From a virus (Duplodnaviria; Caudoviricetes): a DNA stretch of 53,069 bases. Below the pieces are notes generated by a model. It saw only the letters and a program-made list of their open reading frames with translations, searched no databases and was not told the origin of the DNA. How positions within the stretch are numbered: position 1 is the stretch's first letter; every line of letters begins with the position of its first letter. The stretch is from positions 1 to 53,069 of the IMG/VR virus record IMGVR_UViG_3300037883_000032. One strand, written 5' to 3'. The position numbers and the translations under genes are program-made. Below are positions 3,573-28,145 of the stretch, one piece after another.

Positions 3573-3889
3573 CAGATGGTGCTCCAGACGCCGGCGCGTA
3601 GGAAGCCGTGCCAGCCGCCGGGCTTCAGGATCGCGGGTGTGACCGTGATCGTGCCGTCCGCGTGCTCGACGACCTGGTGGTGGCTGGGGCCGATCGTGCC
3701 CAGCTCGCCGGTTGGGTCCTTGATGTACCAGAAGGCGCGACTGCCGTCCTGACCGTCGCCATGAAGGACCTTCATGTAGGCGCCGAGCGGCGCGATGTTC
3801 TCGCAGTACTCCTCGCCCATCTTCTCCCAGGCATCCCAGCCCGCGCCAGGCTCGCCGAGCACCGCGTCGGGGAGGCGTGTGCCCTGCAT
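3572..3889 (-). CDS. Small paralogue 3 (DUF6527-like)
   Basis: EHADGTITVTPAI...WHGFLRAGVW; TGATG coupling. Confidence 0.65.
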   Translation of the reverse strand: MQGTRLPDAVLGEPGAGWDAWEKMGEEYCENIAPLGAYMKVLHGDGQDGSRAFWYIKDPTGELGTIGPSHHQVVEHADGTITVTPAILKPGGWHGFLRAGVWSTI

Positions 3890-4149
3890 CAGGCGAGCCT
3901 CCAGACGCCGCGCTCGAGGTAGCCGTGCCACAGCTCGCCGGTGCCGTCGCTGACCCGGATCGACGGGCTGACGGTGATCGTCCCGTCGTCATGCTCGGTC
4001 ACGTCATGCGCGCCGAGGTTGCCCAGGTGGCCGTTCGGTGTGCAGGCGTACCAGGTCCACTCGCCGTCGCTCATCACGCGCCCGTAGGCGCCCGGGCGGA
4101 AGCACGACTCGCCGCGCATCTCGCCGTCGGCTACACGGTGACCGTTCAT
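3889..4149 (-). CDS. Small paralogue 2 (DUF6527-like)
   Basis: EHDDGTITVSPSI...WHGYLERGVW; TGATG coupling. Confidence 0.65.
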   Translation of the reverse strand: MNGHRVADGEMRGESCFRPGAYGRVMSDGEWTWYACTPNGHLGNLGAHDVTEHDDGTITVSPSIRVSDGTGELWHGYLERGVWRLA

Positions 4150-6657: not shown

Positions 6658-7238
6658 CGCCTTGTGGCCTCCTCGTAGATCAGCCGGTCGCGCTCGAGCT
6701 TCGCCGGTTCGTCGCCGCGGCCCTCGCTCGCCCAGTGGTGCATGAACCGATACGGCAAGCGAACGACGACCTCGCACCCGGCCCGCCGGCACTGGTCGGT
6801 GAACCAGTCGTCGGTGTAGTAGTGGCACTCCAGGCTCGGACCGATGTTGGCTTCCCAGTCCCGCCGGCGGCAGAACGGCACGACGCAGGTGTTCGTCGTG
6901 GGTGCCCAGTCGACGGGCACGCGGTCCCACCAGCCGCCGGCGCTCTCGATGCCGCCTTTGGGGGTGAGGATCAGCGGCGCAGGGATCTTGCACGCCCGGA
7001 GCGTCTCGAGAGCCGCGTCGTCCCACCCCTCGAGCGGCTCGAGGTCATCGGCGGTGAGGTGCAGGTACTCGCCGCCGGCTTTCGCGGCGCCATCGTTCCA
7101 CGCGATGCCGCACGTCGGGCGGCCGGGGATCACGATCAGCTCGATCTCCGCGTGCGAGCGCTCCGTGTAGGCGTTCACGCAGCGCTCCAGGTGCGCCTCG
7201 CGGCCGGGGATCGTGGGGATGACGACGGAGATCGTCAC
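6648..7238 (-). CDS. Glycosyltransferase family 2
   Basis: ISVVIPTI..R..HLERC, AWNDGA..A.GEYL...ADD, YYTDD. Confidence 0.85.
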   Translation of the reverse strand: MTISVVIPTIPGREAHLERCVNAYTERSHAEIELIVIPGRPTCGIAWNDGAAKAGGEYLHLTADDLEPLEGWDDAALETLRACKIPAPLILTPKGGIESAGGWWDRVPVDWAPTTNTCVVPFCRRRDWEANIGPSLECHYYTDDWFTDQCRRAGCEVVVRLPYRFMHHWASEGRGDEPAKLERDRLIYEEATRRCG

Positions 7239-8071
7239 AGCAGGTGGGCGAAGCGATCGCGATTCGCTAGCGCGTAGGGAGGCAGCTCGTCGTCGCCAGC
7301 GCGAAGGGCGTTGCGGTCCTGGCGGCCGAACAGGTCGCGGCCTGTCGCGAGACTGTCGCCGATCGTGCTCGGGTTGTTGTAGGCGTCGGTGTCCAGCTCG
7401 TGATGCGCTGCGCTGCGCAGCTTGTACGCGACGGCGTCGGGGCCACCCATGTAGCTCAGGTGCCAGCCGAGGCCGGGTGCGGCCTGCTCACCGATTTTCC
7501 ACGCTTCCGCTTCGCGGACCCGTTGCAAGCTGTTGTCGTAATAGCGCAGGATCGCGGGGGGAAAGAAGCTCGCGATCGGGATCATCGTGTCGTGCCAGCG
7601 CCACCGCAGCCGGTACACGAACTGCGTCATCCGCGGCCTGACGATCCGCGGCTCGAGGTTCGGCACCCACGTCGCGCAGTCCGCGACCACGTGCGGGAAC
7701 GGGATCTCGTCGAGATCGCTCAGGAGCAGCAGGTCGTCGTCCTTGAGGTCCCACAGGCCCGCTGAAAGCGCGTCGCGCTGGTGATGCTCGCGCCGCCAGC
7801 GGTCTGAGTCGCCTTCGCAGCCGATCGCGTGCGGCTCCCGGTAAACGCTCTCGCCGGCGGGCATGTCCTCCACGACGATGTAGCGGATCTTGTCCTCCCA
7901 CTGCCGGAACCGGCTCCAGTTCTCAGCCAGGTACAGCGGCTTCGGGTCGCCCGAGTAGGTGACGGGCGCCTCGGCGATGACGTGCACGTCGACGACAGGG
8001 TCTAGTTCGGCGAGACGGATCTCGAGCACGTCCAGCTCATTGAAAAACGGGGTGAGACTGTAGGTCTTCAT
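7235..8071 (-). CDS. GT17-family (GnT-III-like) beta-1,4-GlcNAc transferase
   Basis: FFNELDVLEIRL.EL..VVD...AEA..T.SG.PKPL, RE..QRDAL, SDLDEIP, GWHLSY.GG, KL.S..H.E. Confidence 0.8.
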   Translation of the reverse strand: MKTYSLTPFFNELDVLEIRLAELDPVVDVHVIAEAPVTYSGDPKPLYLAENWSRFRQWEDKIRYIVVEDMPAGESVYREPHAIGCEGDSDRWRREHHQRDALSAGLWDLKDDDLLLLSDLDEIPFPHVVADCATWVPNLEPRIVRPRMTQFVYRLRWRWHDTMIPIASFFPPAILRYYDNSLQRVREAEAWKIGEQAAPGLGWHLSYMGGPDAVAYKLRSAAHHELDTDAYNNPSTIGDSLATGRDLFGRQDRNALRAGDDELPPYALANRDRFAHLL

Positions 8072-9036
8072 CGGTGGCCTTTCCTGATGCTGCTGTGAGT
8101 GGCGTGGGACGGCTCCTCGCTCTCGGTCCAGTCACCGTTCGCGTCGAAGCGGGTGACCCACTCGAGGACCTGGGGGAGGCCCTCGCTCAGCTCGACCGTT
8201 GGTCGCCACCCGAGCCTGCGCAGCTTCTCCGTCGAGAGGCGCTTCACGACGGTCTGCGCGGCGGGCGCGGGGATCAGGTCGATCAGCTCGGTGCTCGCGC
8301 CGGCGAGCTGGCAGCAGCGCTCCGCGAGGCTCAGCATCGACAGCGGACGGTCGTCGCGGCCGATGTTGTAGATGCCGGTCCCGGGCACCCGCGCGTCGTA
8401 CCCGGCGCCCTTCTCGAGCACGAGGCGGATCCCGCGGACGGTGTCTTCGATCCAGCACCAGGACCGCTCGGCGCCGTCGTGGATCGGGATCGGCTTGCCG
8501 TGATGGGCCTGCCAGAGAATGTTGTCGAGCGCGCGGCGACCCACACCCGGCGGCGCACCCGGCCCGTACGGCATCGAGAGGCGCACGATCTTCAGCCCGT
8601 CGGGCGCGTAGAGCTGCAACGCCTCCTCGCCCCAGCGCTTCGTAAGGCCGTAAAGGTTGTGGGGCAGCACGCAGCTCGAGGTCTCGTGGCAAACACTGTC
8701 GCGGTGGTCGCCGTAAACCTCGCTGCTAGACGCGTACAGCACGGGGACGCCGCGCTGCCCGCACTCCTGCGCGACGACAGCGGTCAGCTCGGCGTTGCTG
8801 CTGATCGTGTGGCGCAGGTCACGCTCGCCAAACACGCGGCCGACCTGGGCGGCGAGATGCACGAGCGCGTCTGGTTCGGTGATGCGGTCGAGCCAGCCAG
8901 CGAGACGACCCGGTTCGCGCAGGTCGTAGCCGTGCTCGAGGATGTCGGCGCCGTGGATCGTGTGGCCGTTGTTCTTCAGCTCGCGGACCAGGTGAGCGCC
9001 GATGAAGCCGCGGTGGCCGGTGACGAGGATCTTCAC
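8068..9036 (-). CDS. NAD-dependent nucleotide-sugar epimerase/dehydratase
   Basis: ILVTGHRGFIG Rossmann motif, HLAA, ASSSEVYG, YGLTK (YxxxK), YGPG. Confidence 0.92.
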   Translation of the reverse strand: MKILVTGHRGFIGAHLVRELKNNGHTIHGADILEHGYDLREPGRLAGWLDRITEPDALVHLAAQVGRVFGERDLRHTISSNAELTAVVAQECGQRGVPVLYASSSEVYGDHRDSVCHETSSCVLPHNLYGLTKRWGEEALQLYAPDGLKIVRLSMPYGPGAPPGVGRRALDNILWQAHHGKPIPIHDGAERSWCWIEDTVRGIRLVLEKGAGYDARVPGTGIYNIGRDDRPLSMLSLAERCCQLAGASTELIDLIPAPAAQTVVKRLSTEKLRRLGWRPTVELSEGLPQVLEWVTRFDANGDWTESEEPSHATHSSIRKGHR

Positions 9037-9704
9037 GACGCCAGCTCGGCTTCCCATGCTTCGCGGCCCTCGCGTGCCAGGTCCGCTCGTTGCCCGCTCG
9101 GGCTGGAGGCGTGGCGGTGCAGGAACGTGAACAGGCCGCTGTAACCGACCTCCCAGCCCGCCTTGCGTAGGCGGTGGCAGAAGATCGCGTCCTCGTAATA
9201 CAGCCGAGGCATGTTGCTCATCCCACCCACCTGCTCGTACGCCTCGCGGCGGATGAGCATGATCGAGCCGCTGACCTGCGCGACCACCTCGAACGGCGTG
9301 ATGTACTGGCCGATGTCGGCCTGGCCGTAGGAACGTCCGCCGGCGGGACTGCCCGCCTCGAGGATCCCGGCGTGCGCGATGAAGCCGCGCGGGTCGCGCT
9401 GGCGTGGTCCTAGCACGCCGAGGCGGGGATGCTCGTGGAATAGCTCGAGCAGCGGCCCGATTCCCTCCTCGGGGAACTCCACGTCAGCGTTGCACGCGAT
9501 CAGGATCGGGGTCTTCGCGAGGTCGAGGTCGCGCGCGAGCGCGGCGGCGTAGCCGATGTTCGTCGGCAGGTTCTCGACGTAGGTCGTGTGGACCGCCTTG
9601 AGCCATGTTGGTCGGCCGATGCTCTCCCGGCAGCGCGCGGCCAGCTCGGTGGTCTTGTAGCTCACGATCGCGACGGTCGCGGTGAGCGGCGTGTGCTCGT
9701 TCAC
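9033..9704 (-). CDS. Glycosyltransferase family 2 (WbbL-like)
   Basis: VAIVSY, NIGYAAA, NADV, VSGSIMLIRREAYEQVGG, LYYEDA.FC.R...AGW. Confidence 0.88.
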   Translation of the reverse strand: MNEHTPLTATVAIVSYKTTELAARCRESIGRPTWLKAVHTTYVENLPTNIGYAAALARDLDLAKTPILIACNADVEFPEEGIGPLLELFHEHPRLGVLGPRQRDPRGFIAHAGILEAGSPAGGRSYGQADIGQYITPFEVVAQVSGSIMLIRREAYEQVGGMSNMPRLYYEDAIFCHRLRKAGWEVGYSGLFTFLHRHASSPSGQRADLAREGREAWEAELAS

Positions 9705-10474
9705 AGCGCGTACCGGTCCCAGACGTGGCGGGCGTACGTGCCCGGCAGCCAGCCAGCGGTGTAGCCGGCGAGCTTCAGGTTGATCCCGAAGCCGATGTCC
9801 TCCCCCGACTGGTGCCAGCGGTAGCGGACCTTCGAGAACACATAGCGTGGCATAAGGATCGCGCCCATCGGGATGTCGATCGGTTGGACGCCGCCGGCTT
9901 CGCGGGTCGCCTCATCGACTTCAGCGCGTTTCCATGCCCACGTGCCGAGGTCTTGCGGGCGGCCCGCTTCGAGCGCCTCGCGGGGGTGGTGACGCTCGTT
10001 GCCGAGGATCCCGGCGTTGCACGTCCATGTGGCCGTTGGGTGAAAGCTGAGGCGCGGCGCGACCACGTCGACGTTCTCAGCGTCGCAGCCCGGCGGCAGC
10101 GTTGCGATAGCCGCCAGGAGCCGCTCGATCGTGCGGGCGTCCTCGAGCATGATGTCGGTGTCGAGCGACAGCAGGTGTGTCGCGTCGGTGCAGACGGTCG
10201 CCTCGGCGAGCATCAGGTTCCGCAGTCGCGTGAGGGTGTGGAACCGCTCGTTGTCCTGGCGGTCATGCGGTGGCGTGCTCTCGTGGTGGCGGATCGTCGG
10301 GATCTCCCAGTCCTGCGCACAGTCACGGATCGCCTTCCATGTGTCGTCGCCGCGCTGGCCACCGTGGATCAGCAGCACCTGGTCGGGCTTGACGGTCTGC
10401 TGCGCCAGGTACCGGTACCAGTGGGGGAGCGCCCAGTCTCTATCAGCCACCGGCGCCGCTACGACGAGCTTCAT
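9701..10474 (-). CDS. GT-A fold glycosyltransferase
   Basis: VVAAPV.DR, LRN, LSLDTDI (DxD), GEDIGF. Confidence 0.75.
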   Translation of the reverse strand: MKLVVAAPVADRDWALPHWYRYLAQQTVKPDQVLLIHGGQRGDDTWKAIRDCAQDWEIPTIRHHESTPPHDRQDNERFHTLTRLRNLMLAEATVCTDATHLLSLDTDIMLEDARTIERLLAAIATLPPGCDAENVDVVAPRLSFHPTATWTCNAGILGNERHHPREALEAGRPQDLGTWAWKRAEVDEATREAGGVQPIDIPMGAILMPRYVFSKVRYRWHQSGEDIGFGINLKLAGYTAGWLPGTYARHVWDRYAL

Positions 10475-10842
10475 GCCGCCGCCCGTTCGCGCTGCTTCGC
10501 CTCGCGCTTACACGTGCGGCAGTCGCGTCCTATAACGCGCCCGTCGCGGTAGACCAAACGCGTGTTCGCCTCGTCATAAGGATGCCCACGCTTGCAGTGA
10601 GTGCGCCCACGATTCCAGCGCGGCGGCTCGACGCCATCGAAGTCCGCGTGGCAGCGTTTGCACAACTCCAACCAGTCCTCACGCTTGCGGGTGTAGACGT
10701 GGTCGATGCTGGCCCACTCCGTCCGGCCGACGTGGCCGCACCGCTCGCAGCGCCCGCGGCGCTCGAAGTGCCGCTGGACCCACCGGTGGAGCGTGCTATA
10801 GCCGTCGCGGTCGGCGACGGGCGCGGCGACGACGAGCTTCAC
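10471..10842 (-). mobile_element. Free-standing HNH-like homing endonuclease gene
   Basis: Y.TLHRWV...CERCG...EWA...DWLELCKRCH followed by THCKRGHPYDEANT...CRTC; first 13 aa duplicate the start of the downstream GT. Confidence 0.75.
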
Positions 10843-11330
10843 TTGCCCTTCTTCGCGCGCCGCGCGTTTTCGCGGCGCACCTTCCGGGGTGGCTCGGGGG
10901 CCGCCATGAGCGGGGTCTCGCCGTCCGGCCCGTAGAGGCCGGTGTCGCTCGCGGCGTGCTGCTCGGCGCTGGTGGCGACCTGCTCGAAGATCTCGGCGAG
11001 GGCCTTCATCTTGCGCAGGAACAGGTCCTCGAGGGTGATGAGGCCTGTGTCGACGAGGATGTTGGAGATCGCGTTGACGAGGGCGTTGCGTTCGGCGTCC
11101 TCCGGCACGCCGTATTCGCGGCCTGGTTTGCTGATCTCTTGCAGTCGCTCCAGCGAGGCCTTGATGCGATCCTGGCAGGCCTGCGCGATCGCCCGCTGGC
11201 CGGGTGTCATCGTGACGCCCTGCTCCTCCTCGCCCTCCTCGCCCTTCTGCGCGTCCGCCTCCGGCTCGGCCTGTGGCTCGGCCTGCTGGTCGGCTTCGTC
11301 GCGCTCTCGCTCGTCTGTCAAGTCTGCCAT
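10839..11330 (-). CDS. Hypothetical protein, acidic N-terminus and basic C-terminus
   Basis: 163 aa; GAGAGG SD; GTGA coupling to the next gene. Confidence 0.7.
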   Translation of the reverse strand: MADLTDERERDEADQQAEPQAEPEADAQKGEEGEEEQGVTMTPGQRAIAQACQDRIKASLERLQEISKPGREYGVPEDAERNALVNAISNILVDTGLITLEDLFLRKMKALAEIFEQVATSAEQHAASDTGLYGPDGETPLMAAPEPPRKVRRENARRAKKGK

Positions 11331-11494
11331 GCGCGCACCCTCTCAACGGCAGCGGATAGAACGCTTGCGGAGGCCCCGCGGGGGGACCGCGGGGCACTCG
11401 AATCGGACCAGTCGGGCAACCCCCACGAGACCCAGCGGCGAAACTCCACGGCGGCGGGCCAGAGCAGGAGAGGGGCGATCAGGACACGCCTACA

Positions 11495-11523
11495 AGTGTC
11501 GCACGCTGCGACACGTTTGTCAA
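11495..11523 (-). promoter_or_regulatory. Sigma70-type promoter TTGACA-17-GACACT overlapping palindrome GTGTCGCA-CGC-TGCGACAC
   Basis: Consensus -35 at 11518-11523, 17-bp spacer, perfect 8-bp inverted repeat at 11496-11514. Confidence 0.7.
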
Positions 11524-11528
11524 GGGCG

Positions 11529-11645
11529 TCACAGGACCCAACGGTGCTCGCGCCAGTCCTCCCATTTGGCCCGCACTAGCCAGTACCAAGGCAGCAGCGC
11601 GATCGCGCCGAGGATCACGCTGCCGATCCAGCCAACGATCGTCAT
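11529..11645 (-). CDS. Small membrane protein (38 aa)
   Basis: MTIVGWIGSVILGAIALLPWYWLV hydrophobic segment; ATGA coupling. Confidence 0.55.
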   Translation of the reverse strand: MTIVGWIGSVILGAIALLPWYWLVRAKWEDWREHRWVL

Positions 11646-12421
11646 CGACGCGGCTGGTAGGGCACACCGACCGAGAGCGCCGACGCTTCCGCGGCCGGCG
11701 CGAGCGGCTGGTCCGCGCGGCTGTAGTAGCTCTTGCGGACCGCTTCCGCGTTCTTCTGCTGTTCGTTCGCCTGGAGCGTGTACGCCTTCGCGAGATCGGA
11801 GAAGCTCATCTCGCTGTCGCCGGCGCGCGCGGTCGCGAGCGCACATTTCGCGGCGAGCGCGCGCAGCGCTCGAGCTGCCGCGTTGCCGATCACGGCGGGC
11901 ACCAGGCCGTCGGGCACTTCCCCCAGGTTCGCGAACGTGACCGGCCCCGCGACCCACGCGCGCGCTTCGTCGAGGAACCCTTCGAGGGACTTGTCTTGGA
12001 AGTACGCCCACGCGTACGTGACCTGGAGCTGTTCGACGGGCGCCACGGCGAGCGCGAACACGCCGCTGGTGTTCACATCTTCGCTCGGCGTGACGGGCGC
12101 CGGGTTGCTGTCGACGAACGCGACGAGCGACCCGGGCACAACGAACACGGGCGCGAAGTTCTGTGTCGGCACGGCCGTGAAGCGGACCTGGAACTTCGTG
12201 GCGGTCGGGGTGGCTTGCTGCATCACCTGGTCGGAGAGATCCTCGAGGCGCGCGATGCCGAGCGTCTCGCCGTCTGAGGTCTTGCCGTCCTGGATCGCGC
12301 GCTTCAGGCGGTCCAGGCCGAGTGCGACGGTGGTGAGGATCAGCGTCGGCTTCGGGTGTATGCCGGCGAGGGCCTCGTCGACGGGCGGTGGGTCGACCTC
12401 GCCACGGTGACGGATCGGCAT
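11642..12421 (-). CDS. Head-to-tail adaptor protein (putative)
   Basis: 259 aa downstream of the capsid genes; ...YAWAYFQDKSL..FL...AAARALRALA pattern typical of adaptors. Confidence 0.6.
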   Translation of the reverse strand: MPIRHRGEVDPPPVDEALAGIHPKPTLILTTVALGLDRLKRAIQDGKTSDGETLGIARLEDLSDQVMQQATPTATKFQVRFTAVPTQNFAPVFVVPGSLVAFVDSNPAPVTPSEDVNTSGVFALAVAPVEQLQVTYAWAYFQDKSLEGFLDEARAWVAGPVTFANLGEVPDGLVPAVIGNAAARALRALAAKCALATARAGDSEMSFSDLAKAYTLQANEQQKNAEAVRKSYYSRADQPLAPAAEASALSVGVPYQPRR

Positions 12422-12774
12422 CAGACTGCTCCGAGGTCTTCGATGATGACGATTTCCTTGTAGCTTTCGTTCGGGAACGTCTCGAGCTGTTTTTTACCGC
12501 CGACTTCGGGCCATTCAACCTCGACCTCCGCTTTCCACGTGCCCGTCGTGGCGGTGTCTTCAGCGAGGAGCTGCGCTTCGATCTTGCCTTCTTTGGCTTT
12601 GGCGATCGTGCACGGGATTTCGAGGACCGTCGACCCGGACTTCATGATGAGCGTTACTTTCAGCGCCGCGGTCAGGTCCACCGCTTCTTTTTTGCCGGTT
12701 TCTTCGTTGACCTGTTCCAACACCATCTTGATGGTCGGGAACGTGTCGTGGCGCTTGAGTGTGAGATCAGCCAT
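12421..12774 (-). CDS. BppU N-terminal-like (DUF2479-like) virion protein
   Basis: LKRHDT.P...VDLT...G.....DT.T.GT.KAEVEV.W....TFP motif. Confidence 0.65.
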   Translation of the reverse strand: MADLTLKRHDTFPTIKMVLEQVNEETGKKEAVDLTAALKVTLIMKSGSTVLEIPCTIAKAKEGKIEAQLLAEDTATTGTWKAEVEVEWPEVGGKKQLETFPNESYKEIVIIEDLGAV

Positions 12775-24250: not shown

Positions 24251-26452
24251 TCACCCGTCCCCGTTGCGGCCGTGAGGGTGAATGGCACGCGCGAGCCTGC
24301 GGATATTGACCCTGCTCTCGGCACGGTACTGCTCGCCCGCGTCCACATACTCGGGGTCATCGGGCCTGCGGCGTGGGATGCGAGCGCCGGCGCGCGCGGC
24401 CTCGCGGATCGCGACCTGCACGATCTCGACGAGCGTCGGGTCGGCCTCGCGCATCTGCCCGCCGCCGCCGGAGTCCCGGCGAATGTTCGCCTTGCCGGCC
24501 TGCGTCATGACGTTCTCGTCGCCCGGGATGCCCGAGCGGCCGGGTGCGCGTGGGCCTGGCGGCGTACCCGGTGCACCACCGCCCGCTTCCGCGCCTGGGG
24601 GTGCGGCTTCGCCCGGACCGGGCATCAGCAGGCCTGGCGGCTGGTCCTCGCTCGAGCCGGCCTTCGTCGGGTCGAGCTTCGGCGACTGGCGGTACTGGGC
24701 GTTCACCATCGGCCGGCGGATCGTGCCGTCGCCCTGCTTCGGCTTCGTTTTCTCGATCGGTTTGCCGTCCGGGCCGAGAACCTGTGGGCCGCTGTCGTCC
24801 GGCTCGTCCTCCTGGGCGTTGGTGAACTCCTCCGCGATTTTCTTCTGCTCGTCGTCCCAGTCGAACGTCTCGATGTCGAGCTGGCGGGCGCCCATCGCGG
24901 CGGCCGTGTCCTTCGAGATCCAGTCCATGCTCTCGGCGAACGCGATGTCCTTCAAGGCGGCGGAGCGTTCCTCGACGGCGATCGCGGGGAAGATGAACTC
25001 GATCTCGGCGTCCTCGCCAGTGAGGTTCGCGGCGGCGAACACGCGGCGCGCCATGTCCTGAAGGATGCGCTGCGAGAACCGCTGGCGGCGCTCGAAGCGC
25101 TTCTGGCCCGGCTCGGTCGCGACGAGCGCGCCGGCGCGCGCGGTGCTGCCGCCGTGCGCGGCGGTCCACAGCCACTGGCGGCTCACACCGGTGCCGAGGC
25201 AGCACATCTCGACCAGCTCGTCGACGCTGGTGTCGCTCGTGGCCGTCGAGCTGGTGAATTGGAATGCGTCCAGCTCCACCTGGTCGTTGTGCCCGATAAT
25301 CGAGCCAGCTTCCGGGGTCTTGCCTTGCGGGAACAGCTCGTTGCGGACGGTCGCTACGTCGCCGGCGTGACCTTTGACCATCAGGTTGAACACCATCCGG
25401 GCTTCCATGTCGGACCGGATGACCTTGCTCGTCAGGAGGTCTTGGAGGCGCTTGAGGTAGCCCAGGCTGGGGAACAGGTCTGAGCGTCCGCGGACCTCCT
25501 GGCTGCGCACGTTGAGGCGGTAGTGGTCGACCTCCTCCGGCGGGATCTGCCGGATCGTGTACCGCGTGACCGCGCCCGGGTCGGTCGGGCCGGTCGGCGC
25601 CTGGTCGCCGGCGGGCGGCGCGAATAGCTGCGAGCGCTCCTGCTCCTGCTGGTGGTAGAAGTAGACGGTCTCGCGGTCCTCCTGGTCGGTCACGATCTCG
25701 TAGATCCCGGCCGGGTCGAGCGACCGGACGACGAGCGGGCAGCCGTACTCGGGGTCGGGCGGCACGTCGAAGTAGCGCAGGAACAGCTCGCCGTAGCTGA
25801 ACGCGTCGCCGAGGATTTCCTCGAGGCGCTCGTCCATCTTGTTGCGTTTCGCGAACGCGTCCCACACCTTCTGGCCCGCCTCGGTTTTCGCGACGGCTTG
25901 CACGCCCCGGCCGATCACGAACTCCGTGGCGATTTCGATCGCGCGGTGAGCGATCGGGTTGTGGTGGAACGCCTCGAACGCCTTCGCGTTCTGCGCGAAG
26001 TAGTCAGCCCAGTAGAGCTGCCGCGTCGCGGGGCCGGGGATCAACGGAATGTAGGGGCTGGTGACACCACCGCCGAACGGGAGGGTGGTATTGACGCCGT
26101 AGCTCCACCAGTCGAGCGGTTCGGCCTCGCGGAACTTGACCTTGTGCAGCTCGCCGTAGTGCAAGCCCGCGAGCTTCGGCTCAGCCTCGCGCAGGCGCCT
26201 CACGGTCGCCTGGATCGCGCGGCGGTCGTCGTAGCGCTTGATGCGATGCTCCACGAGACGACCCTCACGGAAGCGGCCCTCCCAGAAGCGGCCGGAGAGC
26301 TGCCAGTCGCCCGTCGGCGCAGCGTCCGGGCAGGGCGGCAGTTCCTTCGCGATGTCGTACTGGTACTGGTCCGCCGGTGGCCTGACGAGGAAAGCGTGCG
26401 CGCGGCCGGGGTCGCGGTCGCGGCGCGGCTGGCTCGGGCTTCTACCTGGCAT
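24251..26452 (-). CDS. Portal protein with N- and C-terminal extensions
   Basis: NP.A.R.IE...FV.GRG, YGELFLR, RGRSDL...L, KRFERRQ; position between terL and MuF. Confidence 0.88.
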   Translation of the reverse strand: MPGRSPSQPRRDRDPGRAHAFLVRPPADQYQYDIAKELPPCPDAAPTGDWQLSGRFWEGRFREGRLVEHRIKRYDDRRAIQATVRRLREAEPKLAGLHYGELHKVKFREAEPLDWWSYGVNTTLPFGGGVTSPYIPLIPGPATRQLYWADYFAQNAKAFEAFHHNPIAHRAIEIATEFVIGRGVQAVAKTEAGQKVWDAFAKRNKMDERLEEILGDAFSYGELFLRYFDVPPDPEYGCPLVVRSLDPAGIYEIVTDQEDRETVYFYHQQEQERSQLFAPPAGDQAPTGPTDPGAVTRYTIRQIPPEEVDHYRLNVRSQEVRGRSDLFPSLGYLKRLQDLLTSKVIRSDMEARMVFNLMVKGHAGDVATVRNELFPQGKTPEAGSIIGHNDQVELDAFQFTSSTATSDTSVDELVEMCCLGTGVSRQWLWTAAHGGSTARAGALVATEPGQKRFERRQRFSQRILQDMARRVFAAANLTGEDAEIEFIFPAIAVEERSAALKDIAFAESMDWISKDTAAAMGARQLDIETFDWDDEQKKIAEEFTNAQEDEPDDSGPQVLGPDGKPIEKTKPKQGDGTIRRPMVNAQYRQSPKLDPTKAGSSEDQPPGLLMPGPGEAAPPGAEAGGGAPGTPPGPRAPGRSGIPGDENVMTQAGKANIRRDSGGGGQMREADPTLVEIVQVAIREAARAGARIPRRRPDDPEYVDAGEQYRAESRVNIRRLARAIHPHGRNGDG

Positions 26453-27164
26453 CGACGGGCTGCATCGTAGACCCCCCCTCGGCAGGTAGCCCCAGCAGGC
26501 GCTCCAGGCGGTCGAAGACGTGCGGCGGGCACGCCGGGTCGCTCTGCACCCGCTGCCATAGCAGGATCAGGTAGTCGCGGCCCAGCTCGGGCAGCCGGCC
26601 GCCCATGCGCTGCTCGAGCGCGTCGATCTCCGCGATTGCCTGCTGCGTGTCGGGTGACGGCTCCGGGACGCGGTGCGCGCTGCGCCGCTTCTGTTTGCGT
26701 AGGGCCTCCGCGCGGCACTCCGGGCTGTGGTAGCTCGAGCGGGAATGCTCGGGCACGAACTCCTCCTCGCACCCCTCGAGCGCGCATTCGCGGGTGACGG
26801 GCTTGCCGCCGCGTGCCGCTTCCTCGCGCTCCTTCCGCTTGCGGCGCTTGCGCTTATCGGTGATGCGCCGCTGCCCGCGCACGGCCTCGTCGCGACACTC
26901 AGCGCTGTGGTACGCCTGCGCCGGCGCGGAGGGCAGGAAGATCTCGCTGCACCCGTCCCGCCGGCATTCCTTCTCGCGTGGCACCCACCCCGGGTATTGC
27001 GGCGTCTCCTCCTCCTGCGCGAGCTGCTTCTTCGTACGGCGGCGCTGCGGCTCCTGGTGGCGAACACGAACCGTGGTGTCATGGCCGGGACGCCTCGCGC
27101 TCGCTCCCAGCTCCGCGATCTTCCTATCCATCTCCGCGGCAGCCGCGCCCGTCGGTCGCGGCAT
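26442..27164 (-). CDS. Basic protein with two tandem C-x4-C...YHS.EC zinc fingers
   Basis: ECRRDGCSEIFLP...YHSAECR and ECALEGCEEEFVP...YHSPECR; TGATG start. Confidence 0.7.
   Translation of the reverse strand: MPRPTGAAAAEMDRKIAELGASARRPGHDTTVRVRHQEPQRRRTKKQLAQEEETPQYPGWVPREKECRRDGCSEIFLPSAPAQAYHSAECRDEAVRGQRRITDKRKRRKRKEREEAARGGKPVTRECALEGCEEEFVPEHSRSSYHSPECRAEALRKQKRRSAHRVPEPSPDTQQAIAEIDALEQRMGGRLPELGRDYLILLWQRVQSDPACPPHVFDRLERLLGLPAEGGSTMQPVDAR
26464..26475 (-). promoter_or_regulatory. GGGGTCTACGAT motif copy 4
   Basis: 11 nt upstream of the portal ATG. Confidence 0.6.
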
Positions 27165-27505
27165 CAATGGCCCCTGCGTCGGCGCATCTTCTCGCGGCAG
27201 CAGCGGCGACATTCGCGGGCGCCGTCAGCACGCCAACGCGTATTCTCCTCGTCGTAAGGATGACCGGCCGGGCAGTGCGTCTTGCCGCGCTGGTGGCGCG
27301 CTGCGCCGTTCCCACCGTCAAAGGCCTGGTGGCATGGCCGGCACAGCTCGAACCAATCGTGCCGCCAACGACTGTAGCTGTGACCCACGCTCGCGTATTC
27401 CGTCGGGCGGTCGCCGTGCGCGCAGAACTCACAGCGACCCGTGCGTGGAAAGTCCGCGTTCAGCCGTTTGTGAAGCCTGCTGACGCTCGGCACGGATGGC
27501 GACAA
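27164..27505 (-). mobile_element. HNH-like homing endonuclease, paralogue of 10471-10842 (start uncertain)
   Basis: LHKRL...CEFC...EYA...DWFELCRPCH...KTHCPAGHPYDEENT...CRRC. Confidence 0.7.
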
Positions 27506-27692: not shown

Positions 27693-28145
27693 TCAGTGAA
27701 CCTGCGCGGCCTCCCGGCCAGGCGCCGGCTCAACCGCTGACTCGTCCGGCTCCTCCTCGTGTGACGCGTCGTCGTGCGTCTCGACGCGCTGGAGGTGAGA
27801 GACGCTGCCGCCCTCCTCGCCGTCGCCTTCGACGACCCTGCCGAAGATGTCAGCCTCGCGCAGCAGGACGATCTCGACCAGGTCGACCTTTAGCTCGGTC
27901 CCGCCGTATTTGCTGTATAGGACCTCGTCGCCGACCTCGAGCGGCTGGTAGCCGTGGGTGATCTTGAGACGCTCGCGTTCCTGCGCGGCCTCGACACCGA
28001 CCATCGGTCCCATCGCGATGATCCTGCCGCGGTGCGGCTTCTCGCGGGCCTGCTCGGGCAGGATGATCCCGGACTTCGTGACCAGCTCGTCGCTGATCGG
28101 CTCGACGACTACGCGGTCGCCCATCGGTTCTAGCGTGGCGCTCAT
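27693..28145 (-). CDS. groES: Co-chaperonin GroES (Cpn10) with acidic C-terminal tail
   Basis: LEPMGDRVVVEP...TKSGIILPEQAREKP.RG.IIAMGP...LEVGDEVLYSKYGGTELKVD...LLREADI. Confidence 0.93.
   Translation of the reverse strand: MSATLEPMGDRVVVEPISDELVTKSGIILPEQAREKPHRGRIIAMGPMVGVEAAQERERLKITHGYQPLEVGDEVLYSKYGGTELKVDLVEIVLLREADIFGRVVEGDGEEGGSVSHLQRVETHDDASHEEEPDESAVEPAPGREAAQVH

Follow-up and report, generated by a model that had tools for sequence, protein, structure and literature searches.

A Putative HNH Endonuclease Gene in a Phage Genome Fragment Opens with a Divergent Copy of the Neighboring Glycosyltransferase Gene Start

Introduction

The spread of free-standing homing endonuclease genes is attributed to break repair, and these genes are credited with shaping phage mosaicism. 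Published accounts of such genes describe mobA-mobE of phage T4, which are sporadic and promoterless (PMC2988022), the HNH genes of Cluster J mycobacteriophages, with "precise insertion" (PMC3706429), and, in a study of ICP1, nuclease genes at exchange boundaries (PMC10448857). We present here an HNH-type gene in a stretch of soil phage DNA, IMG/VR record IMGVR_UViG_3300037883_000032, positions 1 to 53,069 (the window, meaning the whole 53,069 bases analyzed), the reading frame of which opens with 13 codons for the same residues as the first 13 codons of the glycosyltransferase (GT) gene that follows it. The window is probably a recombinant, with the 13-codon repeat as the joint between two related phages.

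The gene resembles the T4 mob and Cluster J HNH genes: it is small, wedged between cotranscribed genes, promoterless, sporadic, variable in copy number, and at an apparent exchange boundary. Those genes are described with their own starts and in intergenic positions, whereas the frame here opens with 13 codons of its neighbor; it also falls below Pfam HNH thresholds, making it a putative nuclease. One-sided homing of the T4 td intron was reportedly described by Parker, Belisle and Belfort in 1999. When homology is available on one side alone, homing in phage T4 relies on illegitimate repair of the double-strand break at microhomologies (PMC2988022). The window is like that system in having homology on one side only and a nonhomologous or microhomologous junction on the other, where its flanking gene g163 is diverged. 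Unlike td, a laboratory system with an intron-borne GIY-YIG enzyme, it would be a natural product, joined in frame and carrying a free-standing HNH-type gene, with a break site that is here only proposed.

Insertions into coding regions are also on record: mobE in Aeh1 nrdA, mobA at T4 gene 60, and, in phage 25, a seg-like gene at gene 43 (PMC2988022). The window shares with these a nuclease gene inside a host coding sequence and the survival of host function; unlike them, with the host described there as split into two polypeptides that reassemble, its GT is in one piece, with a complete second 5′ end after the insert. Only in the window are the orphaned first 13 GT codons translated as a nuclease leader. 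The nearest phage idea, in our view, is the T4 mobA/gene 60 cassette, where part of the host gene moves together with the nuclease gene and shields the site.

The original prediction, an earlier note on this DNA, had likened the repeat to gene-end duplications by homing endonuclease genes in fungal mitochondria, and free-standing GIY-YIG and LAGLIDADG genes with partial duplication of a neighbor (the atp9 N terminus, atp6, and cox1) are indeed described (PMC7487136). Those cases differ in lying in organelle genomes, in their nuclease families, and in that the duplicated pieces are called pseudogenes there (PMC7487136). The literature searched described no phage HNH or other nuclease gene that starts with a duplicated neighbor start.

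The repeat and the genes that carry it

The genes and repeat copies at the joint are as follows, where GC3 is the G+C fraction at third codon positions.

10842 to 11330, minus strand: g163, a 163-amino-acid gene whose TGA stop overlaps the HNH GTG start (GTGA)
10471 to 10842, minus strand: HNH-type endonuclease gene, 123 amino acids plus stop
10804 to 10842, minus strand: upstream copy of the repeat, HNH codons 1 to 13, GC3 1.00
10436 to 10474, minus strand: downstream copy of the repeat, GT codons 1 to 13, GC3 0.69, its ATG overlapping the HNH stop (ATGA)
9701 to 10474, minus strand: GT (GT1), predicted GT-A fold glycosyltransferase, 257 amino acids

On the minus strand, the upstream copy (10842-10804) reads GTG AAG CTC GTC GTC GCC GCG CCC GTC GCC GAC CGC GAC and the downstream copy (10474-10436) reads ATG AAG CTC GTC GTA GCG GCG CCG GTG GCT GAT AGA GAC. 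Direct reading and recomputation agree with the original prediction that both encode the same 13 residues, (V/M)KLVVAAPVADRD, and differ at 9 of 39 bases. One difference is the first base of the start codon (GTG versus ATG), and the other eight are synonymous, spread over seven codons; at all eight of these positions, the upstream copy has C. The copies are 368 bases apart, and the longest identical run between them is 13 bases. Similarity does not continue beyond the 39 bases, with 13 of 30 bases matching upstream of the repeat and no match after codon 13. No third copy turned up when all six frames of the 53-kb window were scanned for other 12-mers with at least 8 of 12 identical residues, and no other 39-mer in the window lies within 12 mismatches of the repeat.

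The codons previously called atypical in the downstream copy proved to be so. Across 33 high-GC3 frames (7,813 codons), GTA makes up 1.6% of Val codons, GCT 6.4% of Ala, GAT 8.9% of Asp, and AGA 1.8% of Arg, and these four stand among the 13 codons of the downstream copy. The first 13 codons of neighboring genes also have low GC3, at 0.69 in g163 and 0.77 each in g259, the epimerase gene, and g278. The start regions fold at −30.9 kcal/mol for HNH (z of −0.71 against shuffles) and −22.8 kcal/mol for GT (z of +0.63), neither being unlike the shuffled sequences.

The downstream gene matches no Pfam family at an E value of ≤0.01, and no CAZy-type family was assigned. Its structural model (predicted local distance difference test score [pLDDT] 80, predicted template modeling score [pTM] 0.83) identifies it as a predicted GT-A fold glycosyltransferase: a Foldseek search of PDB returned at least 500 matches at E ≤0.001, among them COLGALT1 (E 1.6e-12), GlfT2, LH3, TarP, and Mnn9. 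Its DxD motif is D105-T-D107, with D105 and D107 invariant in nine sequences. Because residues 3 to 9 are modeled as strand beta-1 (pLDDT about 94), and P8, V9, A10, R12, and W14 are invariant in nine relatives, the repeated peptide is predicted to be part of the core of the GT fold and needed by the GT.

In run X1, an 11,439-base Logan contig covers 9000-12500 with no differences, so that the junctions do not stem from the assembly of the IMG/VR record alone; X1 is possibly the source sample, so this contig is not independent of the record. Run X2, a soil metagenome from another study, holds contig pieces identical to the window, including parts of the GT and HNH genes, with no differences over 1,207, 210, 158, 305, 152, and 209 bases. 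The phage of the window is thus present in at least two data sets. A joint in X2 that links 10382 to 11271 and skips 888 bases was not used, as its shorter side has 22 letters at 85% likeness; it does not fit an HNH-free allele, where about 368 bases would be missing, and such joints often come from other organisms.

The putative nuclease and its leader

The conserved core of the HNH protein begins at about codon 14 to 15 (GYSTLHRW) and contains two CxxC pairs, H48, D56, and H65, followed by a C-terminal C/H-CxxC module resembling a zinc ribbon. The family to which it belongs comprises 10,223 proteins at E ≤0.001 and 531 at E ≤1e-10, and its members start near "GY..H.W" and have two CxxC pairs, the conserved His and Asp, and the terminal C/H-CxxC module. 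In a comparison of 18 sequences, C32, C35, C61, and H65 are invariant, D56, W57, E59, and C64 are nearly so, and H48 is found in most. The structural model (pLDDT 85) places strands at 41 to 45 and 57 to 61 and a helix at 62 to 68. PHROG families annotated "HNH endonuclease" match at E 5.3e-7 and 1e-4 over residues 76 to 122 and 58 to 122, mostly the C-terminal zinc-ribbon part. The HNH protein matches no Pfam family at E ≤0.01, its model has no PDB match at E ≤0.001 by Foldseek, and a word-based protein search returned only three proteins, the window's own included; PF13392 is present in two remote database relatives. The upstream gene is likely, but not proven, to encode an HNH-type nuclease.

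The C-terminal module (THC..GH....NT......R.CR.C; residues about 80 to 113, at 10504-10605 on the minus strand) recurs as three to six tandem matches in many database proteins of 200 to 560 residues. It looks like a reusable zinc ribbon and is probably a DNA-binding repeat.

The stretch from 10842 to the conserved core contains no further in-frame ATG, GTG, or TTG; therefore, the HNH protein can be made only with the leader. Residues 1 to 9 of the model have pLDDT values below 50, and the 13-residue leader is probably disordered. The KLVVAAPVADRD leader is missing from the 15 top family representatives inspected, from the orthologue in the related locus L003, and from the window's own paralogue, given below; judged by these relatives, it is foreign to the HNH family.

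27164 to 27505, minus strand: paralogous HNH gene, core 52 to 54% identical, without the 13-residue leader

The idea that homologous HNH genes might carry similar duplications found no second example. In a survey of the window paralogue, L003, and 22 IMG/VR loci (24 other HNH loci in all, with near-duplicates among them), in which the window served as positive control (z = 5.1), none had an exact or near-exact leader repeat of the start of the downstream gene, so that, across these loci, the leader duplication is so far a single case. L036 and L037 (z of about 4) were not accepted as leader duplications, since their alignments are gapped, of low complexity, and contain stops.

The view that the element is neither intron- nor intein-borne is borne out. 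No Rfam family matched at E ≤1 in 9000-12600 on either strand, and there is thus no match to a self-splicing intron in this region. The HNH frame closes with its own TGA, which overlaps the GT ATG, so there is no read-through fusion with GT and the arrangement is not intein-like. These observations support a free-standing HNH gene.

Related loci and the spelling of GT 5′ ends

Pattern scans with GT and GT alignments yielded 12 distinct related loci. The informative set comprises 11 loci in nine lineages; L012 was dropped because it is without the GT 5′ end, and L013, L015, and L016 are nearly the same sequence. By tblastn, HNH is sporadic, adjoining GT in L003 only (1 of the 11). Family copies per record number two in the window, one in L003 (a 68.6-kb record), and none in L004 (a 48-kb record), all three being fragments.

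L003 is the closest relative, with GT 65 to 69% and HNH 67 to 69% identical to those of the window. Its HNH gene (3651-3992) overlaps the GT start by its stop (GTGA), the same arrangement as in the window, and has its own GTG start (MDVNYSTAHRW), which overlaps the end of gene g164; it has no GT-like leader. By this comparison, the HNH-GT unit is common to the window and L003, and the peculiarity of the window is its left junction. The proposal of an in-frame insertion after codon 13 accordingly holds for that junction and fails as a feature of the element, since the L003 orthologue is at the same place and leaderless. The possibility that the 3′ end of L003 g164 keeps a decayed remnant of the duplication was rejected, as the best local score, 23, was reached by 6% of 388 control windows of L003.

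The HNH-free loci show how GT is coupled when no nuclease gene intervenes. In L010, a 155-amino-acid g163 homologue overlaps the GT start (ATGA), and in L011, the stop of the g163 homologue lies 4 bases before the GT ATG. In L004, L007, and L018, GT is coupled to the homologue of g259, the next gene to the left, the slot being empty with a stop-start overlap, and in L017, two other open reading frames (ORFs), one ending in a CxxCxGxG motif, stand between the g259 homologue and GT. The slot between the g259 homologue and GT is thus variable: the window, L003, L010, and L011 have a g163-like gene there, and in L013 and L014 it spans about 230 to 330 bases with no clear gene. A g163 scan of viral contigs gave 25 pattern hits, none of which was confirmed, and found no close relatives.

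The original prediction expected GC-rich spelling in HNH-free alleles, and the two closest have it: L010 reads GCG CCC GTC GCC GAA CGC GCG TGG GCG and L011 reads GCG CCC GTC GCA TTC CGG GAC TGG GCG, neither carrying the AT-richer codons. Over eight codons (24 bases) around the invariant Pro, the upstream copy matches L010 at 21 bases, L011 at 19, and the downstream copy at 16; the downstream copy matches L010 at 16 bases and L011 at 13. More distant HNH-free alleles are mixed, with many A/T-ending codons in L004 and with GTG and AGG in L017. Among L004, L007, and L018, which are HNH-free and have GTs 77 to 85% identical, pairs show one amino acid difference and six to eight synonymous codon differences in the same 12 codons. 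The comparison indicates that the peptide simply is well conserved and that synonymous sites at the GT start are quick to turn over; the two copies in the window look like orthologous alleles of two phages about as related as L004, L007, and L018 are.

Change of relatedness across the HNH gene

Relatedness was compared on both sides of HNH for three genomes and four genes, using these two further flank markers.

11642 to 12421, minus strand: g259, a conserved structural-module gene, left-flank marker
9033 to 9704, minus strand: GT2, a GT2-type transferase (Pfam Glyco_transf_21, Glyco_trans_2_3, and Glycos_transf_2), right-flank marker

Identities are given in the order window-L003, window-L010, L003-L010.

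g259, left of HNH: 62, 61, and 57%
g163, left of HNH: 37, 38, and 37%
GT1, right of HNH: 69, 51, and 49%
GT2, right of HNH: 64, 53, and 50%

The window groups with L003 by the right-side genes only, not by the left-side genes, which places an exchange boundary at the repeat in a manner suggestive rather than conclusive. Between the window and L003, protein identity is 37 to 42% for g163 and 65 to 69% for GT, and the g163 flank appears far too diverged for homologous pairing.

Origin of the joint

We favor the reading, probable in our view, that the window is a recombinant of two related phages. The left parent would have been HNH-free, with GT directly after g163, a stop-start overlap between the two, and a GC3-rich GT 5′ end; it would have contributed g163 and GT codons 1 to 13. 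In the right parent, a free-standing HNH gene would have been coupled to that phage's own GT allele, the unit seen also in L003; this parent would have contributed the HNH core and the whole GT. On one side, homologous exchange would have taken place in or beyond GT; on the other, the ends would have been joined nonhomologously, so that GT codon 13 from the left parent came to precede, in frame, about codon 3 of HNH. The HNH gene would thereby have lost its own start; its translation would now begin at the former GT start, in coupling with g163, and yield a protein with the probably disordered 13-residue leader. This agrees with the earlier suggestion that HNH uses a native start and coupling, the start and overlapping stop being those from which GT would be translated in an HNH-free allele. 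The GT would be whole since the complete copy of the right parent came along, and the copies would differ only synonymously because each was kept under selection as a GT N terminus.

How the exchange was initiated is a more tentative matter. One-sided homing, to which we give somewhat less than an even chance, would have HNH cut the 5′ end of an HNH-free GT, with repair from an HNH-bearing coinfecting genome whose diverged g163 flank could not pair. The downstream spelling might then be uncuttable, the break might lie near codon 13, and GAC (Asp13), which is also the second codon of the L003 HNH gene, might have served as microhomology. A stronger version is unlikely: that the window preserves the exact footprint of natural homing by an actinophage HNH family, with the break after GT codon 13, GTG/AGA as the immunity polymorphism, expression only from the captured start, and an insert reversible by recombination between the repeats. 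If it were true, recombination between the diverged 39-base direct repeats would restore an intact HNH-free GT, and a homing gene would have an intron-free, intein-free way to sit inside a coding sequence with the host gene unharmed.

Natural joints that show entry into diverged genomes are rarely this legible, with both parental alleles of the 13 codons surviving side by side. Under the recombinant reading, the nuclease gene would be expressed through a captured start, with the host gene whole without an intron or intein. The joint proposes a testable target region, the GT 5′ end around codon 13.

Several observations weigh against the recombinant reading, or against a nuclease's part in it. 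In run X2, no listed contig piece bridges either copy of the repeat, which leaves support for the joint from one sample, possibly the source. The searches turned up no close HNH-free relative with exactly the spelling and peptide of the upstream copy; the GTs of the nearest HNH-free alleles are 49 to 55% identical. The comparison of flanks covers three genomes and four genes, with rates that differ between genes. Window-L003 synonymous divergence (pS) is 0.705 for HNH against 0.41 for GT1 and 0.42 for GT2, and HNH and GT may therefore be without one shared history; nonsynonymous divergence is similar (0.23, 0.20, and 0.28 for HNH, GT1, and GT2), and a weaker codon bias in HNH could also explain its high pS. 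Support for the HNH assignment itself is only moderate: the Pfam model HNH (PF01844) matched at E 2.5, far short of the cutoff, no Pfam HNH family was found in any of the 18 family members at E ≤0.01, and a PDB sequence search with the 18-sequence profile returned nothing at E ≤1. The best fold match was the Gme HNH nicking endonuclease 4h9d (E 0.48, probability 0.80), with weak matches to Cap5, McrA, and TagI.

Alternative explanations

The joint could also have arisen by ordinary illegitimate recombination or copy-choice between coinfecting phages, with HNH as a passenger or serving the phage, for example, in DNA packaging. This is a doubtful but serious alternative. Mosaicism from illegitimate recombination is widespread in phages (PMC3706429), the slot between g259 and GT varies even without HNH (empty in three loci, g163-like in four, and with other ORFs in L017), and the paralogue lies near the portal gene; the moderate support for HNH family membership counts on the same side. 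The position of the joint speaks for a part played by the nuclease, as it falls exactly at the 5′ edge of the nuclease gene, and the presence of that gene in 1 of 11 loci at a copy number of 2, 1, or 0 (window, L003, and L004) is the usual signature of a free-standing homing endonuclease gene. Nuclease genes at exchange boundaries are, moreover, a pattern described in the ICP1 study (PMC10448857).

Directed recoding, the purpose-made replacement of the original prediction, would have the element carry or evolve a respelled GT 5′ end that abolishes a putative HNH site and reduces repeat-mediated deletion of HNH. The four rare codons among 13 and the identical run of just 13 bases between the copies fit this, as do two features of the HNH-linked alleles. 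GTG at Val9 and the rare AGA at Arg12 occur both in the downstream copy and in L003, which holds the one other HNH-linked allele, and AGA at Arg12 is absent from all 10 HNH-free loci. At these codons, the nearest empty alleles carry GTC and either CGC or CGG, although empty alleles also vary there and the two linked alleles are sisters. The 5′-end drop in GC3 relative to the whole GT is −0.21 and −0.34 in the two linked alleles, where it was counted as largest; HNH-free L004 drops about equally, at −0.33. Since the window and L003 are sisters for GT, their common AGA and GTG amount to a single event, and GTG also occurs, together with AGG, in HNH-free L017. Neighboring genes, as noted, also open at GC3 0.69 to 0.77, and the less stable fold of the GT start than of the HNH start offers an ordinary translation-initiation reason for rare codons. 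Because HNH-free pairs reach six to eight synonymous codon differences with one amino acid change, the synonymous-only divergence does not appear to require directed recoding. We consider this explanation unlikely, and the downstream copy is better read as the donor's own allele; the striking "synonymous recoding" has, as a caution, the look of ordinary orthologous alleles in this segment.

In situ duplication, in which the first 39 bases of GT were copied before a resident L003-like HNH gene and then drifted within the genome, is highly improbable. It draws on the small distance of 368 bases between the copies and on L003, which shows that a leaderless HNH gene existed at the same place. In a simulation of eight random substitutions, the peptide was kept in 0 of 200,000 trials; 29 of 108 possible single changes are synonymous, as are 8 of 27 possible changes to C. 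Because all eight changes are synonymous and the simulation never kept the peptide, neutral drift of a local duplicate in situ is excluded. A disordered leader gives no reason for such constraint, and the upstream copy is nearer a foreign HNH-free allele (21 of 24 bases) than its own neighbor (16 of 24). An assembly chimera of HNH-bearing and HNH-free strains is scarcely credible: the record is metagenomic and the X2 contigs break near both copies with no listed piece bridging, but the X1 contig spans the region without differences, at most 13 identical bases in a row are too few for a k-mer graph crossing, and an in-frame joint with an intact HNH gene would not be expected.

Genome setting

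The window is a linear record with 68% G+C and an estimated completeness of 66%, and nearly all of its genes are on the minus strand. It is identified as belonging to a tailed phage because it encodes predicted portal, protease- and capsid-like (PHROGs), and tail tube (Pfam Phage_tube_2) proteins. A distant-mode blastn search with 9000-11400 against 50,697 deposited phage genomes found nothing similar at that sensitivity. No Pfam or PHROG family matched g163.

GT1 and GT2 belong with two further genes to a sugar-modification cluster.

8068 to 9057, minus strand: NAD-dependent epimerase/dehydratase
7235 to 8071, minus strand: family-17 glycosyltransferase

This four-gene cluster (7235-10474, minus strand) lies within the virion structural module, between head and tail genes, and stands upstream of the tail tube gene (1443-2447). 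In keeping with an idea from mycobacteriophage work, the cluster may glycosylate virion proteins. The paralogous HNH gene, whose stop overlaps the start of the next ORF, has a GroES-like gene (27693-28145) on one side and the portal gene (24251-26452) on the other.

A sigma-70 promoter scan of 9000-12600 gave no promoter-like site, and an intrinsic terminator scan of the same region gave two terminator-like sites, both on the plus strand, where shuffled sequences gave 1.7. The 311-base gap between g259 and g163 (11331-11641) contains no gene-strand ORF of at least 40 amino acids that fits the codon bias, and a simple scan gave no sigma-70-like promoter and no minus-strand terminator there. L003 has a 480-base gap at the matching place. 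The g259-GT-GT2 block relative L013 (3001-3702), near-identical to the IMG/VR loci L015 and L016, lies in a 242,610-base GTDB contig of a Conexibacter sp. metagenome-assembled genome; the block there is a possible prophage and a clue to an Actinomycetota host group.

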